64,000 bases of DNA from an uncultured Eubacteriales bacterium. GTDB lineage: Bacteria; Bacillota; Clostridia; Christensenellales; QALW01. The notes under the pieces are model-generated. The model saw nothing but the letters and a program-made list of their open reading frames with translations. It ran no database searches and was not told the DNA's origin. Position 1 is the stretch's first letter, and each line of letters begins with the position of its first letter. This document shows positions 10,829 to 47,470 of this stretch, piece by piece. The stretch spans positions 26,943-90,942 of the forward strand of contig URIR01000002.1 of assembly GCA_900547955.1 (NCBI GenBank). Reading direction: 5' to 3'. The translations under genes were made by a program, and so were the position numbers.

Positions 10829-10835
10829 TATAAAA

Positions 10836-11166
10836 TTGAGACGGGCCTGTAAGCCGAGTTCTGTCGTGAATGACCATCTATCTATTCCCGCCGTTGCCGA
10901 ACGGGCTTAAGCGATTACCTGGAAGCCGGCGGACAACCGTTAATGCTTCGCTATCAATCTTGCTCCGGATGGGGTTTACAGGGCCTGCAAGTCGCCAAGC
11001 AGCCGGTGAGCTCTTACCTCGCCTTTCCACCCTTACCTGCAAAGGCAGGCGGTATATCTCTGTTGCACTCTCCTTGGAGTCGCCTCCACCGGATGTTATC
11101 CGGCATCCTGTCCTGCGGAGCTCGGACTTTCCTCGTATTTTCACCGCGGTCATTCGGCCCGCTCAA
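10836..11166 (-). ncRNA. rnpB: RNase P RNA (bacterial type)
   Basis: On the minus strand it contains CGAGGAAAGTCCGAGCTCCGCAGG (the P4 5' strand) near 11120-11142. It also contains TAGATGGTCATTCACGACAGAACTCGGCTTACAGG (the P4 3' strand / conserved 3' region) near 10848-10880. The termini TTGAGCGGGCC and GGCCCGTCTCAA can form P1. The ends are approximate. Confidence 0.9.
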
Positions 11167-27203: not shown

Positions 27204-27400
27204 GGGGCGCCCCGCCCTCAAAGTGGGGCGCACTTATTTTTATTATAAAACAAGCTTTAATAATTATCCATATGTTAATCGTAATCTGCAAATATTAGTA
27301 TGCGCCCCTGCCGCCCGGCGCGAACCAGCTCCAAAAGCGCCTTGCCAGACTGCCCGTCCGCGCCCGTGCGGCAATATAAATCCCGCCCGCGCCCCGGCGC
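27204..27400. repeat. degenerate third copy of the repeat that forms the arms of the 45.6-47.2 kb cassette; includes a terminator-like hairpin
   Basis: It shares colinear blocks with 45744-45920, in the same order: GGGGCGCCCCGCCC (an exact 14-mer), AAGCTTTAA, TGCGCCC, ATATAAAYCCCGCC and CCCGCGCCCC. The hairpin at 27207-27231 is flanked by T/A runs and probably terminates the xseA-xseB-ispA transcript. Confidence 0.5.
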
Positions 27401-32555: not shown

Positions 32556-34211
32556 TTATTTATTCTTCTTTCTTCTTGCCGCAATTACACCCGAGCCCGC
32601 AGCCGCGGCCAGCGCAAAGGCTAAAGTAGCAAAATCGCCGTTATTATCGCCCGGCTTATCTGTATTCCAGGCATAGCCGTAAGCGTCCTTAAAGGCGTCG
32701 GCATATTCATCTGTTTTTTCGCCTAAACCCGATATATCAACGCCTTTTTCTTCAGCCTCAGCCAAAAGCGCATAAAGCTCGGTTATAGCATCCTTCCATG
32801 CCTCTTCATTTTTCTTATCCATATCCGCGCCGAATAAATCAGCTAAAGCGGCGTCCATCGCCTCTATTAAAGCGGCCACCGCATTATACTCGGCCAGCGC
32901 CGCGGCATAAGCTTCCCCGTAATTCTCTCCCAGCTCAGGATTAGCAGTAAGCAGCGCGCTTATTGAATCCAAAACTGCTTTAGCGTCATTATAATTAGAC
33001 GCGTTAATGCTTTCAGGCAGCCGAGCTAAAAGCGCCTCCAGTTCCTCCGCAGTACCGTCCGGTTCTTCAACAGGATTTTCTCCCGCCTTATACAAAAGCG
33101 CGCCCAATCCGTTTAAGGAAATAACCGCCGTCTTATCCGTTCTGCTCTGGAAAAATACGCCGGGCTCCCAATAAAGCGTATACTCATCGTTAGAATGGTC
33201 AAAGTTGCCCTTAAGCTCTTCGGAATTGCTGTTACCTATGCGGGTAACGGGAATGCAGAGATAACCATCAAAGCCGGCGGGTATAACAACCTGATAACGG
33301 CTCATGGAATAAATAACCTCCGCTCTCTGCGCCTGGCCGTCTCTGCTGACTAAATATATTCCGTCGCATCCCTCGGCCTCGCCCGTGAGATAGAAGTTGC
33401 CGTCCGTACCGCCGCCGTTCCAGCGATATCCCTGGAAGCCCAGACTGGATTCGCCTGCATAGTTGGTTATATCAAATACCAGGCTGGACGCGGCCCTTTT
33501 AACATTAAGGTCAAAGCTATCTCTATAATCCCCTTTATTTCCATTATAAGCGTCAAATTTAACCTCAGTATACTGACTTTCGCCAGCCGAAGCGGCAATT
33601 ATAGGCTTATTTAAATCGCTTAGCATAATCATCTGGTCGGCGTCAAAAATTGTTCCGTCAGCATGTCCGTCTTCAAATGTAAATGTAAAGCCCGGCACGT
33701 CATGCCATTCTTTAGTGGTACCGTTGTAGTAGCTCATATAAACATAATAGGTAGTACCTACTGTAAAGGTAAAATGGCTGTCCAAAACCTGAACACCGTC
33801 CACCAAGCCGTTGTCGTCTGTCATGGAGCTGGGACCAATTCTCCAAAGGGAGGAAGGAACTACATTATTTAGGCGCTTTATCGTGCCATCCTTATTACCG
33901 TTATCCTTAGGCTCAGTATATATGCCCATTTCTGCCCAGCTCGCTCCTTCAAAAGGCGTAAAATAAATATTGGCTGTCATATTTGTCGTATCGCAGTCAA
34001 CATATATTTCTCTTTCAGGCTGAGTATACTCGCCGGGATAAGTAAACTCAAAGCATTTGGAAATTTCCCATGCACTACCATTTACAGGGGTTGCGAGATA
34101 TGTGTAATACTTTTGACCGGGAACAAATTCAAAATAATCCACCAAATCGACCTTGTCTAAGTTGCCCACGGTACGGGAAGAGCTGTTCACATCGCTTCCT
34201 CCGCGCTTCAC
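32556..34211 (-). CDS. surface protein, main part (repeat domains + CBM-like domain + helical region + C-terminal anchor); probably the 3' part of a frameshifted gene
   Basis: It has no signal peptide of its own. It begins in the middle of a repeat domain (...VDYFEFVPGQKYYTYL...CFEFTY). Its C-terminus NGDFATLAFALAAAAGSGVIAARRKKNK is homologous to that of 19086-19679. Confidence 0.65.
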   Translation of the reverse strand: MKRGGSDVNSSSRTVGNLDKVDLVDYFEFVPGQKYYTYLATPVNGSAWEISKCFEFTYPGEYTQPEREIYVDCDTTNMTANIYFTPFEGASWAEMGIYTEPKDNGNKDGTIKRLNNVVPSSLWRIGPSSMTDDNGLVDGVQVLDSHFTFTVGTTYYVYMSYYNGTTKEWHDVPGFTFTFEDGHADGTIFDADQMIMLSDLNKPIIAASAGESQYTEVKFDAYNGNKGDYRDSFDLNVKRAASSLVFDITNYAGESSLGFQGYRWNGGGTDGNFYLTGEAEGCDGIYLVSRDGQAQRAEVIYSMSRYQVVIPAGFDGYLCIPVTRIGNSNSEELKGNFDHSNDEYTLYWEPGVFFQSRTDKTAVISLNGLGALLYKAGENPVEEPDGTAEELEALLARLPESINASNYNDAKAVLDSISALLTANPELGENYGEAYAAALAEYNAVAALIEAMDAALADLFGADMDKKNEEAWKDAITELYALLAEAEEKGVDISGLGEKTDEYADAFKDAYGYAWNTDKPGDNNGDFATLAFALAAAAGSGVIAARRKKNK

Positions 34212-44390: not shown

Positions 44391-44625
44391 CTAATAAAAA
44401 TAAAACCGTCCTTTACAAAAAGGACGGCTGAACCGCGGTACCACCTTAATTCCGCACGCATAAAGCGCGCGGCGCTCATTACGCTTTAACGGGCGCACCC
44501 GTGCAGAGCTACTTTAAAACACTTTCACCCTGCGCGCTCCAAAGCGACCTTCAGCTTGTTTCCCCGCGCCCTTTCACCGCTACGAGCGCTCTCTTAAGGC
44601 AGAAACACAGCCTACTCCTCTTTTT
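44391..44625 (-). promoter_or_regulatory. T-box riboswitch leader of valS with terminator/antiterminator
   Basis: On the minus strand it has the T-box sequence GGTGGTACCGCG (44433-44444). This is followed by the terminator hairpin AGCCGTCC...GGACGGTT plus a T run (44391-44428). Upstream stem I elements include AGAGAG and GGTGAAAG. A GUC (Val) triplet lies in GAAGGUCGC (near 44538-44546) as a candidate specifier. Confidence 0.85.
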
Positions 44626-44638
44626 CACAGCGATATAT

Positions 44639-45217: not shown

Positions 45218-45645
45218 ATTAGTATGCGCTCCCTAAGCATAGCGGCGTATACCCATAATCCCTGTTTTTTGCAGGAATGATACTATATTATACTCCAAAT
45301 TGCCTGAATTAACAAGCCTAAGTTAGACAAAATCACAGCTTATATCTCATTTAGGCAATCTAAATTAATAAAAATAAGTAAATTTGAGCTTCCGGACTTA
45401 GAAAACTTAAAAGGGACAAAGCGTACAAAACCAAGCAGATGCATTAACTGCTGTACATCCGCATGCGCAACAATTGAAATACCAAAATAATACCAGGAGT
45501 TTTGGTATCAAAATACAGGATATTAAAACTTGGCAAACTGCTTTCGGGCCGTTCAGTATTTTCCCAGACGCGCTCACGATATAAGCGGCTTTTGAGTTTG
45601 AGCAGGGAAAGGGCGGTGGGGGTTAAGCTGGGGGGAGATAGGTGT

Positions 45646-45922
45646 AAGTTAATCTTTTCACATCAAAATAGCGGAATCCCGTCTATTATCTCGCACACAG
45701 CTATATATGCAAATGGATAAGCTTTTTATATTGCATAAAGCCATGGGGCGCCCCGCCCTTTTAATGTGGGCGCATCCCGCTGGAAGCATTTCTACAGGTG
45801 CTGTCGCATTCCATGCGAAATTTTTCTTTAAAGCTTTAACCCTGCGCCCGCCCCTCGCCCTTTGGGCGATGGGCCATATAAACCCGCCGCCTTAACGGCG
45901 GCCTGCCCGCGCCCCTAGCAAT
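45646..45922. repeat. left arm of a ~280-bp inverted repeat flanking the XRE/Zn-ribbon cassette
   Basis: By hand alignment it is the reverse complement of 46881-47159. The first ~125 nt differ at one position. Overall identity is about 90-93%, with two divergent hairpin blocks. Confidence 0.9.
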
Positions 45923-45946
45923 ATACCAAGCTTTTTCTCTAAAAAT

Positions 45947-46198
45947 CTACTTATCATAGCTTATAGGATACAAAACATCGCCAACTTGAGCGTCAATTAC
46001 TCTATTACGACATCTTTCGCAAATTCTTTGATTATTCAAAGTTATTAAATTAGCTATACTGCCACAAAAAACACAGCTAGGATAAATCTTTGCAACAAAA
46101 ATCTTATTCTTGGTTATCGTCAGCTCTATATTATTTGTTAAAGCTACTTTAATATCTTTTATTTCAGATTCATAAAGTTTTCCCACAGTCTTTTTCAT
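45947..46198 (-). CDS. small zinc-ribbon protein (83 aa), function unknown
   Basis: Four cysteines in a CVFCG...(22 aa)...CERC arrangement. An AGAGG RBS lies 7 nt before the ATG. The gene is AT-rich and transcribed divergently from the XRE genes. Confidence 0.55.
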   Translation of the reverse strand: MKKTVGKLYESEIKDIKVALTNNIELTITKNKIFVAKIYPSCVFCGSIANLITLNNQRICERCRNRVIDAQVGDVLYPISYDK

Positions 46199-46300
46199 AA
46201 AGTACCTCTAAAATTTTTCATTTGCACCTGTATAGGAGCAATTATAACAGAAATTAATGATAACATCAAGAAAAAATTGTACTGAAATAGGAGCAAAACT

Positions 46301-46558
46301 ATGAACAAAGCATTTAACCGAGCCGTTGGCCAAAACATCAAGCGGCTTAGAGAGAAAAACAACTGGAAGCAATCTGATTTAGAAGCAAAATTAGGCTTAT
46401 GTAAAAGCCCTATAACAAGAAGCACCATTGCCAAAATCGAAGCCGGTCAGCGAAATATTTATCTTAATGAACTCAAATTATTTAAAGATGTCTTCAAAGT
46501 AAACTATGAAGCTTTTTTTGAAAATACACCAGAAAACGACTTATCTGCACTTATATAG
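46301..46558 (+). CDS. XRE-family helix-turn-helix protein (85 aa)
   Basis: GQNIKRLREKNNWKQSDLEAKLGL...STIAKIEAGQRNIYLNEL is an HTH_3/Cro-CI type motif. The RBS is TAGGAG. Confidence 0.8.
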   Translation: MNKAFNRAVGQNIKRLREKNNWKQSDLEAKLGLCKSPITRSTIAKIEAGQRNIYLNELKLFKDVFKVNYEAFFENTPENDLSALI

Positions 46559-46620
46559 GTGCATTTTAAGTATATTCTAATGTTACGATAATGAAAATAA
46601 ATACTAATAGGAGTAACATA

Positions 46621-46845
46621 ATGAATAAAGAGTTTGAAAAAAGCGTTGGAAATAAAATAAGAAATATTAGAGCAAGAAAAGGAGTAACACAGGATGAATT
46701 AGCTTCAATGCTTCAAATAAAAAACTGCGATATTACACGAAGCGCATTAGCAAAAATTGAAGTTGGTCAACGGCACATATATATAGATGAGTTAAAAGCG
46801 ATTAAAGAGGCATTAAAGGTCAACTATGAGGACTTGCTTAACTAG
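46621..46845 (+). CDS. XRE-family helix-turn-helix protein (74 aa), tandem paralog of the previous gene
   Basis: MNKEFEKSVGNKIRNIRARKGVTQDELASMLQI...SALAKIEVGQRHIYIDEL. The ATG at 46621 was chosen because it reproduces the RBS and N-terminus (TAGGAG...ATGAAYAAAG) of the first paralog. Confidence 0.8.
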   Translation: MNKEFEKSVGNKIRNIRARKGVTQDELASMLQIKNCDITRSALAKIEVGQRHIYIDELKAIKEALKVNYEDLLN

Positions 46846-46880
46846 TATTTACACCTTCTAACGCCGGGAAGATTGCTGGG

Positions 46881-47159
46881 GGCGCGGGCAGGCCGCCGTT
46901 AAGGCGGCGGGTTTATATGGCTCCCTGGCCCATAGGGGCAGGGAGCGGGCGCAGGGTTAAAGCTTTAAAGAAAAATTTCGCATGGAATGCAGCGGCGCCT
47001 GTAGAAATGCCGTCGGCGGGGTGCGCCCACATTAAAAGGGCGGGGCGCCCCATGGCTTTATTCAATATAAAAAGCTTATCCATTTGCATATATAGCTGTG
47101 TGCGAGATAATAGACGGGATTCCGCTATTTTGATGTGAAAAGATTAACTTCCCCCCTCC
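46881..47159. repeat. right arm of the ~280-bp inverted repeat flanking the XRE/Zn-ribbon cassette
   Basis: Reverse complement of 45646-45922 (see the left arm). Confidence 0.9.
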
Positions 47160-47164
47160 CCGCT

Positions 47165-47220
47165 TTCCTCCCCGCTTTCCTCCCCGCTTTTCTCCCCGCT
47201 TTTCCCGTTTCCACAACAAT
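47165..47220. repeat. 12-bp tandem repeat CTCCCCGCTTTY, about 4.6 copies
   Basis: Read directly: units at 47165, 47177, 47189 and 47201, plus a partial fifth. It lies immediately outside the right inverted-repeat arm. Confidence 0.9.
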
Positions 47221-47354
47221 TTTGCTTTTTTCCGATATAACTACGCAATATTAATTAAAACATCATATATTTATATATAGTTTTATTTTTCACCATTTTT
47301 CTTATATATCTATTTATATCATAATTTACAGCAAATTTCAATTTTAAACGATGA

Positions 47355-47392
47355 AAATAAAAAGAGAGAGAAAACAACATTTTTCTCCCTCT
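47355..47392 (-). terminator. rho-independent terminator of the 2-oxoacid:ferredoxin oxidoreductase operon
   Basis: On the minus strand, the hairpin AGAGGGAGAAAA-ATGTTG-TTTTCTCTCTCT has one mismatch and is followed by TTTTATTTT. Confidence 0.65.
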
Positions 47393-47470
47393 TTTATTTG
47401 TTTCAATTTTATCCCTCATTTTTTACTCGCATATAATATATAGAGTACCAAATGAAGAGCAATCTTAGAA

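Follow-up and report, generated by a model that had tools for sequence, protein, structure and literature searches.

In a 64,000-nucleotide stretch of DNA from an uncultured gut Clostridium (contig URIR01000002.1; this whole stretch is referred to as the window, and all coordinates count from its first nucleotide), three small regulator genes lie between korC and pgsA, enclosed by two long, inverted, GC-rich arms. On balance, we lean towards explaining this locus as an inherited regulator cassette placed between arms that act as 3'-end terminator and insulator modules, with inversion of the cassette and exchange of its cargo as by-products. Each arm contains a copy of a ~172-nt structured unit, which matches no known family and which is itself the most interesting outcome of this work. 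Contigs and genomes compared with the window are denoted by L numbers.

The cassette and its inverted arms

In the window lineage, the order of the locus is korC, arm, the genes for two XRE-family helix-turn-helix (HTH) proteins (XRE74 and XRE85), the gene for a zinc (Zn)-ribbon protein, arm and pgsA. korC is the label used here for the gene of the gamma subunit of a 2-oxoacid:ferredoxin oxidoreductase (kor operon), and pgsA is followed by a T-box leader and then by valS. The left arm is on the pgsA side, next to the Zn-ribbon gene, and the right arm is on the korC side, next to XRE74.

A preliminary description of this DNA, made from the sequence alone, had reported a long inverted repeat with one mismatch in ~125 nt, GC-rich arms around an AT-rich core, and three small genes, one for a CxxC...CxxC protein on the minus strand and two for tandem XRE paralogues. 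All of these features were confirmed. The arms extend over 45641-45934 and 46860-47155 and are ~93% complementary; a repeat search returned them as 45641-45860/46936-47155 (220 nt, 93%) continuing into 45844-45934/46860-46950 (91 nt, 78%). When the left arm was compared with the window by blastn, a match of 279 nt at 93.5% identity was obtained (E 1e-118), and no other match was close. In an alignment of arm against arm, one mismatch was seen across the outer ~125 nt, the remaining differences being concentrated in two short hairpins. The GC content is 0.48-0.54 in the arms versus 0.27-0.36 in the core of 925-958 bp. The three genes were recovered as open reading frames (ORFs), and XRE85 and XRE74 are 45% identical to each other. 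Comparison across species divides each arm into three parts: a tract rich in C and poor in G on the outward strand, the outer module (~100 nt) and the ~172-nt unit. The features of the arms are as follows.

45604-45640, no strand assigned: tract rich in G on the plus strand (outward strand rich in C, poor in G), corresponding in degenerate form to the array of 12-mers (alignment of both ends)
45641-45744, plus strand: outer module of the left arm, containing CACATCAAAATAG (repeat search and alignment)
45713-45685, minus strand: promoter-like site facing outward in the left outer module, TTTGCA-17-GATAAT (consensus-like match)
45745-45915, plus strand: left copy of the ~172-nt structured unit (nhmmer E 7e-46, alignments and pair counts)
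45884-45901, minus strand: hairpin C followed by GUUUAUAU, intrinsic-terminator-like, ~45 nt past the Zn-ribbon stop codon (consensus match)
46879-47051, minus strand: right copy of the ~172-nt structured unit, with hairpin alleles A2 and B2 (nhmmer, alignment and pair counts)
46893-46910, plus strand: hairpin C of the right unit, terminator-like (consensus match)
47052-47155, minus strand: outer module of the right arm, with an outward-facing promoter-like site at 47083-47111 on the plus strand (repeat search and alignment)
47155-47202, plus strand: array of 4.0 copies of the 12-mer CCTCCCCGCTTT, C-rich and G-poor on the outward strand (repeat search)

On the outward strand of both arms, a GC hairpin (CCGCCGTTAAGGCGGCGG) followed by a U-tract (GTTTATATGG) lies 40-50 nt past the stop codons and matches the intrinsic-terminator consensus. 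In every arrangement of the locus that was seen, 13-45 nt separate a gene stop codon from the inner arm end, always with the same relative strand. The arms fold more stably than all 200 shuffled versions of them (z-scores of -4.0 and -3.8). The outward flanks contain 24-32 C versus 5-10 G per 60 nt in three species; for the left flank of the window, 28 C and 5 G were counted on the outward strand of 45581-45640, a span of 60 nt that reaches beyond the tract at 45604-45640. As hairpin C and the U-tract stand on the outward strands together with a stable fold and a C-rich tract, we infer from these features that the arms are 3'-end terminator/insulator modules.

A transcript leaving the cassette would thus meet, in this order, hairpin C with its U-tract, a very stable multi-helix fold, and a C-rich, G-poor tract with the composition of a Rho-loading site. 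The cassette would then consist of small autoregulated transcription factors, whose divergent, outward transcription units would each run into a copy of the unit; the inverted repeat would exist because the same 3' module serves both sides; and transcription from the cassette would be stopped by the arms before it reached pgsA-valS on one side or the convergent kor operon on the other. The preliminary description had offered three readings of the locus: an invertible segment, a non-autonomous cargo element, and an insulated regulatory switch that might be toxin-antitoxin-like or defence-like. The last of these, restricted to an insulated regulatory cassette, is the best fit of the three, given the DNA-binding proteins, the shared predicted operator and the outward terminator-like hairpins; no evidence was found for its toxin or defence part (see below).

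As to the outermost repeats, the array of 12-mers described earlier to the right of the right arm is present, at 4.0 rather than 4.6 copies, and its proposed degenerate counterpart outside the left arm was recovered when both ends were aligned. Among strains L001-L017, the CCTCCCCGCTTT array has 2 to at least 6 units, with a scaffold gap inside the array in L003; it behaves as a hypervariable tandem repeat, and its unit resembles the CCCCGCCCTTT motif of the structured element. The left outer module is partly conserved in two sister species, L019 and L020 (see below). ORFs of 58-62 aa within the arms were considered as protein-coding and rejected, as the variable centre is not conserved and contains indels of lengths not divisible by three.

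A conserved structured unit

The left copy of the unit reads, in order, GGGGCGC-CCCGCCC ... GTGGGCGC, a variable centre, GCGCCC, hairpin B (allele B1), CATATAAA, hairpin C and CTGCCC-GCGCCCC. The skeleton of the family begins with GGGGCGC-CCCGCCC-T(TT)TNAAN-GTGGGCGC, followed by ~70 nt of unconstrained AT-rich sequence, and ends with GCGCCC, the GC-rich hairpin B, (C)AATATAA, an optional hairpin C (CCGCCGCCTTAACGGCGGCC) and CC(C/T)GCCC-GCGCCCC. In an alignment of eight copies, for which similarity of the variable parts is 39-58% in most pairwise comparisons, 93 of the 177 columns are invariant. Hairpin B occurs in at least 16 different sequences, every one of which is paired, with 9-19 paired positions; in the arm-type alignment, double compensatory changes were found in 4 of its 11 pairs, and the observed covariation score was reached by none of 500 shuffles. 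The two long-range pairings, P1 (GGGGCGC/GCGCCCC) and P2 (GGGCGC/GCGCCC), and hairpin C never vary. Covariation therefore neither backs nor refutes the P1 and P2 pairings, and some sequence-specific constraint must act on them. Since the conserved helices are all pure G:C, both strands fold alike; each strand shows G-U wobbles, L020X and L113 having them on one and L119 and L120 on the opposite one, and folding energy likewise favours neither.

The window contains exactly three copies of the unit, and GGGGCGCCCC was found nowhere else in it. The third copy is at a distant site.

27204-27395, plus strand: third, single copy of the unit, without the outer module and without hairpin C (nhmmer E 7.6e-19)

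This copy had been described as a degenerate arm-like repeat at 27204-27400. It is real, but it is a conserved single-copy member of the family instead of a degenerate arm: it lies 31 nt past the stop codon of a polyprenyl synthase gene (the ispA locus), upstream of a signal-peptidase-like gene, and it is fixed in all 22 contigs of the window species that were read. In a related species (contigs L099, 6399-8045, and L117, 4712-6358), a gene for a 548-aa DUF6056 protein stands between the signal-peptidase-like gene and the element of this locus.

The copy census suggested earlier thus yields three copies for the window itself, and in related metagenome bacteria single copies were found at unrelated loci. 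A degenerate pattern built from the 5' motif returned 19 metagenome loci, two of which are chance matches in high-GC coding DNA; per lineage, two or three distinct loci were represented. They include the pgsA-locus arms of relatives, single copies 3' of the polyprenyl synthase gene (orthologous to window 27204-27395), and, from other organisms, single copies with unrelated surroundings (L101/L104, where the copy follows ftsA-ftsZ, L103/L108 and L107/L109/L111). Every copy of the unit is intergenic. Between the near-identical contigs L104 (775-893) and L101 (11620-11790), a clean deletion within the element was seen between direct repeats CCCGCGCCC, which removes everything from the 3' half of hairpin B to the 3' terminus. 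At 742-898 of L110, the copy of the polyprenyl synthase locus is inverted compared with window 27204-27395, and a canonical terminator is present there between the gene and the element.

Searches of Rfam 15 with the arms and the single copies returned no match, either at the gathering threshold or at a permissive E<=5-10, and elsewhere in the window they returned just the RNase P RNA and the T-box. For two invariant 22-mers, 0 matches were obtained among viral contigs; the whole unit gave no blastn match among plasmids and phages; an exact 20-mer of the outer module gave 0 matches in genome contigs; and a literature search for the invariant sequence strings returned nothing relevant. With nothing matching in the RNA family library, the phage and plasmid collections or the papers searched, the unit is a concrete candidate for a new motif: a conserved, low-copy structured RNA or DNA element, with ~90 invariant positions and a covarying hairpin, in abundant and barely studied gut Clostridia.

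Structured intergenic repeat families are well known in other bacteria, for example REP/BIME/REPIN, ERIC, the pneumococcal BOX and RUP elements, and the Correia elements of Neisseria. Families of the REP/BIME/BOX type have tens to hundreds of copies per genome, and their sequences drift. Like them, the unit described here is intergenic, orientation-independent and hairpin-forming, and it can sit at the 3' ends of genes; its modular build (an outer module, a core unit and short tandem units in varying number) also recalls boxA-(boxB)n-boxC. In contrast to them, it has about three copies in 64 kb, it is kept at orthologous sites across species, and it has ~90 invariant positions.

The properties of the unit include points that weigh against the terminator/insulator explanation of the arms. 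Termination or insulation alone would need no invariant helix sequences, and P1 and P2, which never vary, get no support from covariation. The single copies lack hairpin C, and their orientation relative to neighbouring genes is not fixed, the L110 copy being flipped relative to ispA and those of L107 and L109 having the opposite strand sense. The explanation does not account for the invariance of the GC motifs, or for single copies occurring in either orientation; going by the sequences, the invariant motifs imply an additional sequence-specific partner, which may be a protein or an RNA tertiary fold. A gene-specific cis-regulator of the riboswitch type was considered and rejected, as the neighbouring genes are unrelated (pgsA and those for polyprenyl synthase, FtsZ, FMN reductase and a PP-loop protein) and the orientation varies.

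A rival possibility, which we regard as rather unlikely, is that the 172-nt units are independent genes or sites, namely a new structured small RNA, or a single-stranded DNA (ssDNA) fold recognised by a protein or an HUH enzyme, and that their flanking of the cassette is secondary. For example, the units could regulate the cassette genes as convergent antisense elements, or serve as recombination sites for the capture of regulator genes. The unit does show a pattern typical of structured RNAs, in which invariant motifs are combined with a covarying hairpin that differs in length, a further hairpin that may be missing, and a centre free of constraint; the units are kept at orthologous single-copy loci over large divergence, in orientations independent of the neighbouring genes; and homology between cargo alleles stops at the GCGCCCC terminus of the unit. 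However, no conserved promoter or terminator was found around the single copies, G-U wobbles on both strands allow no strand to be assigned, there is no Rfam match, and no enzyme gene is associated with the unit. A doubtful but more specific proposal is that the unit may represent a new functional class of structured nucleic acid (a small RNA or a protein-recognised ssDNA fold) confined to Neochristensenella-like Clostridia, and that the inverted pair would serve as a docking site where regulator genes are captured, flipped and exchanged between strains.

Inheritance of the locus

The host is a Neochristensenella-like gut Clostridium, and the locus is best read as a chromosomal one, inherited vertically, rather than as a transposon. 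The host species is frequent among human-gut metagenome assemblies. Its closest named genome is Candidatus Neochristensenella gallicola (Clostridia incertae sedis; L019), with a PgsA that is 90% identical in amino acids; a second sister species, L020, is a metagenome-assembled genome labelled Selenomonadales, whose PgsA has 82% amino acid identity to that of the window. Both have korC, arm, XRE74, XRE85, Zn-ribbon gene, arm and pgsA in the same order and orientation. DNA identity to the sister species is alike for core and flanks, at 84% and 76-80%.

It had been suggested that relatives be examined for an empty korC-pgsA site. None was found; the site is occupied, with the same layout, in L019 and L020, which weighs against mobility. 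There is no target-site duplication at the outer ends of the arms, as the flanks ...GATAGGTG and CCCCTCCCC... share no direct repeat. All contigs read that encode the Zn-ribbon, XRE85 or HTH_26 proteins (the last belonging to an alternative cargo described below) have them at the pgsA locus, and the sole close relatives of the Zn-ribbon protein seen, in L019, L020 and L112, are at the pgsA locus as well. The locus is therefore old, syntenic in three species and diverging in step with its flanks, and a recent mobile insertion is not supported. In agreement with the preliminary description, no recombinase or transposase family was found in the Pfam annotation of ~0-22, 24-29 and 41-64 kb, nor among ORFs of at least 130 aa at 29.8-40.5 kb, where a 551-aa ORF has no Pfam match and ORFs below 130 aa at ~29.8-41 kb were unscanned. 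This 551-aa ORF is at 32556-34211 on the minus strand, and its exact product, unlike those of its neighbours, is absent from the assembly collection.

These data bear directly on the idea that the locus is a non-autonomous composite mobile element, in which two inverted repeats resembling miniature inverted-repeat transposable elements (MITEs) would mobilise the enclosed DNA by means of a transposase encoded elsewhere. Composite elements of two MITEs around a cargo do exist, such as the MITE-flanked integrons of Acinetobacter and the TIME-derived composites. As in those, two inverted, short, non-coding repeats enclose a cargo that varies by strain (L014, L016, L112, L133 and L134). The unit also ends in 7-bp terminal inverted repeats (GGGGCGC...GCGCCCC), single arm-type copies are present at unrelated loci elsewhere (L101/L104 3' of ftsZ; L103/L108), and the ispA-locus copy is flipped in L110. 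The idea of a cargo element is thus right in that there is a repeat family with single copies elsewhere and a variable cargo. However, mobility is not supported: three species, at dS ~0.5-2, have the site occupied and in synteny, and no empty site, target duplication, second location, or copy on viral contigs, phages or plasmids was found; the cassette proteins are confined to the pgsA locus in the contigs read; the copy number is low, both in the 64 kb and per lineage; and the ispA copy is fixed. We therefore consider a composite mobile element very unlikely.

Homogenisation of the arms, possible inversion and cargo exchange

The near-identity of the two arms is restricted to the window lineage. 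In their variable part, the arms are 87% alike in the window, versus 56% in L019 and 40% in L020. Moreover, the korC-side unit of the window (X arm) is 80% like the pgsA-side unit of L019 (Z arm) versus 57% like its positional orthologue, the L019 X arm. As the arms of the sister species have diverged and the window X arm resembles the L019 Z arm, the ancestor had two diverged inverted copies, one of which was largely overwritten in the window lineage. The long, near-perfect repeat is thus secondary, specific to the window lineage, and made by gene conversion. Under the cassette explanation, the two ancestral copies would already have diverged outside the conserved motifs; gene conversion would have rendered the arms 89-93% alike; the resulting ~280-bp arms would have become substrates for ordinary homologous recombination; and recombination between arms would have produced mosaic arms, an occasional flip of the cassette and, in some strains, replacement of the cargo by an HTH_26 gene. 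The locus illustrates, in nature, how gene conversion can turn two diverged copies of a functional element into a long, near-perfect inverted repeat; with such a repeat in place, a transcription-factor cassette beside essential genes (pgsA and valS) becomes open to inversion and to the replacement of its alleles.

Exchange of alleles between the arms was observed among strains. In one group (the window, L003, L006, L011, L012 and L015), the XRE74-side arm carries hairpin allele B2 and the Zn-side arm carries B1. In a second group (L001, L004, L005, L008-L010, L013 and L017), the hairpin-B alleles are exchanged, while the hairpin-A alleles and the core have not moved. As both groups are represented by k=141 megahit contigs spanning both arms, assembly does not explain the swap. 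In L014 and L016, the two arms carry the same allele (B2/B2 and B1/B1, respectively). L010 comes from the public sample SAMEA14100407, and L001 and L013 come from ERZ27304252. The reciprocal hairpin-B swap is what two inversions would give if one crossed over on each side of hairpin B. In one contig, L010, the pgsA flank is joined to the XRE74 end of the cassette, i.e., the cassette is inverted relative to every other contig, the count being one inverted contig versus ~44 others, and two sister species, in the standard orientation. Two considerations count against the inversion component of our explanation: gene conversion together with recombination between strains could also give a reciprocal allele swap; and inversion rests on L010, which ends inside the second arm, so that a mis-join is possible. 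Inversion of the cassette is thus plausible but unproven, and at most rare, and the invertible segment of the preliminary description is hinted at by L010 and the swapped hairpin-B alleles, against the single orientation of the other contigs and the sister species.

The same observations must be weighed for a programmed invertible switch (phase variation), in which a flip would change the promoter facing pgsA-valS-folC versus the kor operon and so create two heritable expression states. Invertons, i.e., invertible DNA segments between inverted repeats, have been catalogued in gut bacteria, for example with PhaseFinder; the classical ones have repeats of 10-40 bp and a serine or tyrosine invertase nearby. 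The present locus resembles them in that inverted repeats bracket a short regulatory segment with divergent promoters. One contig of the population data, perhaps a mis-join, has the alternative orientation. Arm modules have been exchanged reciprocally between strains, and the HTH_26 cargo faces pgsA in L014 and korC in L112. A precedent for rearrangement without any known site-specific recombinase is the pneumococcal spnIII (hsdS) inversion locus (PMC6620402). However, the arms here are ~280 bp long, their identity is a recent by-product of gene conversion, no recombinase or invertase was found among the window genes checked, and one orientation dominates. In addition, the arms of the sister species are too diverged for efficient inversion (40-56% alike in the variable part, with a longest near-perfect stretch of ~50-60 nt), although the architecture is kept, and terminator-like arms would stop the promoter read-out. 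A programmed switch is thus unlikely in our view; under the favoured explanation, flipping would be a by-product of homologous recombination between the arms.

In L014, L016, L133 and L134, the flanking genes are identical to those of the window, and the same arms enclose a 611-bp AT-rich segment with a single gene for a 77-aa HTH_26 protein. In the two sequences inspected, L014 and L016, homology between the cargo alleles breaks at the GCGCCCC terminus of the unit. L112, from an L019-like species, is a hybrid that carries a stray arm fragment, a truncated Zn-ribbon gene and, oppositely oriented, a related HTH_26 gene. The stray fragment (L112 1473-1544) is an inverted piece of the outer module of an arm located within the hybrid cassette, which suggests that the HTH_26 gene came with its own arm. 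Allelic cassettes of the idiomorph type between conserved flanks are known, for example, from agr and competence pherotype loci. The present locus is similar to these in that unrelated alternative regulators (the three-gene set versus the single HTH_26 gene) occupy one site within one species, and both cargoes carry a similar predicted palindromic operator; it differs in that the conserved flanks are inverted copies of each other and that no signalling peptide or receptor is involved. As public metagenomes hold both cargo alleles, and perhaps both orientations, these ideas are directly testable.

Cassette genes and their predicted control sites

The core contains the following genes and control sites.

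45947-46198, minus strand: Zn-ribbon protein, 83 aa, CxxC...CxxC (ORF and profile searches; dN/dS 0.09-0.24)
46223-46269, no strand assigned: divergent control region (imperfect operator and promoter-like site)
46301-46558, plus strand: XRE85, XRE-family HTH protein, 85 aa (PF01381, E 1.4e-9; dN/dS 0.07-0.22)
46546-46563, no strand assigned: perfect palindrome TGCACTTATATAGGTGCA, presumed XRE operator, also terminator-like (motif search)
46621-46845, plus strand: XRE74, XRE-family HTH protein, 74 aa (profile search; dN/dS 0.04-0.11)

For the three genes together, dN/dS is 0.04-0.24 at dS 0.5-2.2. The check for purifying selection that had been called for thus indicates that these ORFs are real genes under such selection. 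From their sequences, the products are small DNA-binding regulators, namely two XRE paralogues and one AbrB/MazE-like Zn-ribbon protein. XRE74 belongs to a family that is large in Clostridia, 2753 relatives being returned at E<=1e-8. In PADLOC, it matches best the restriction-modification (R-M) controller protein (Control_protein model, E 8.8e-10); identity as an R-M controller (C) protein is not supported, the neighbours being korC and pgsA and no R-M genes being nearby.

The Zn-ribbon protein has just three close clusters. An exhaustive profile search returned relatives of ~85 aa in which an AbrB/MazE domain (SpoVT_AbrB, PF04014) precedes the same ribbon, a family that is uncharacterised; hhalign aligned residues 13-83 of the protein with this family at a probability of 99.6%. 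The protein shares the CxxC...CxxC ribbon with these small proteins and with Gin/CsfB (PF10764), and it is C-terminally complete; unlike the AbrB/MazE proteins, it lacks the first (N-terminal) beta-strand motif of the AbrB domain, GRIxLP, and has no toxin partner. As a Gin/CsfB anti-sigma-G protein, it scores 22.2 bits, below the Pfam cut-off of 27. Its AlphaFold model is poor (pLDDT 44).

The toxin-antitoxin-like or defence-like role raised earlier found no evidence: no toxin, enzyme or defence family was detected for the three cassette products in Pfam, NCBIfam, PADLOC or PHROGs. A type II toxin-antitoxin module in particular does not fit, as all three products are small DNA-binding proteins and there is no toxin partner.

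In the divergent control region, the imperfect operator TGCACCTGTATAGGAGCA at 46223-46240 is a one-mismatch copy of TGCACTTATATAGGTGCA, and the promoter-like site of the Zn-ribbon gene, TTGATG-17-TATAAT, is at 46269-46241 on the minus strand. TGCACTTATATAGGTGCA also lies, in identical form, upstream of an XRE74 homologue (66% identical) found in another organism at a locus unrelated to this one (L122 3908-3925), and the near-identical TGCACTTATATGAGTGCA precedes the HTH_26 gene of the alternative cargo (L014, at about 7430). The palindrome TGCAC-N8-GTGCA is common to the XRE genes, the HTH_26 cargo and the L122 homologue, and is probably a family-wide operator, judging from these motif matches. 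With similar palindromes at both, the alternative cargoes probably bind the same predicted operator. Inverted repeats around the distant XRE74 homologue in L122 were also examined as a possible pair of arms; these are two similar palindromic terminators, not the structured unit.

Other features of the window

Between the right arm and korC, a 54-aa ORF is present at 47255-47419 on the minus strand (L001 4804-4968), which is called as a gene in some assemblies only; it overlaps a strong bidirectional terminator-like hairpin at 47360-47395. Two RNAs exceeded the Rfam gathering threshold: the T-box leader between pgsA and valS (44417-44637, minus strand) and a class A RNase P RNA (10833-11165, minus strand). 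A SpoIIID homologue and several sigma-factor genes are located at ~8-12 kb (via L145). These genes suggest that the host is a spore-former, which is perhaps relevant to the weak resemblance of the Zn-ribbon protein to Gin (anti-sigma-G).

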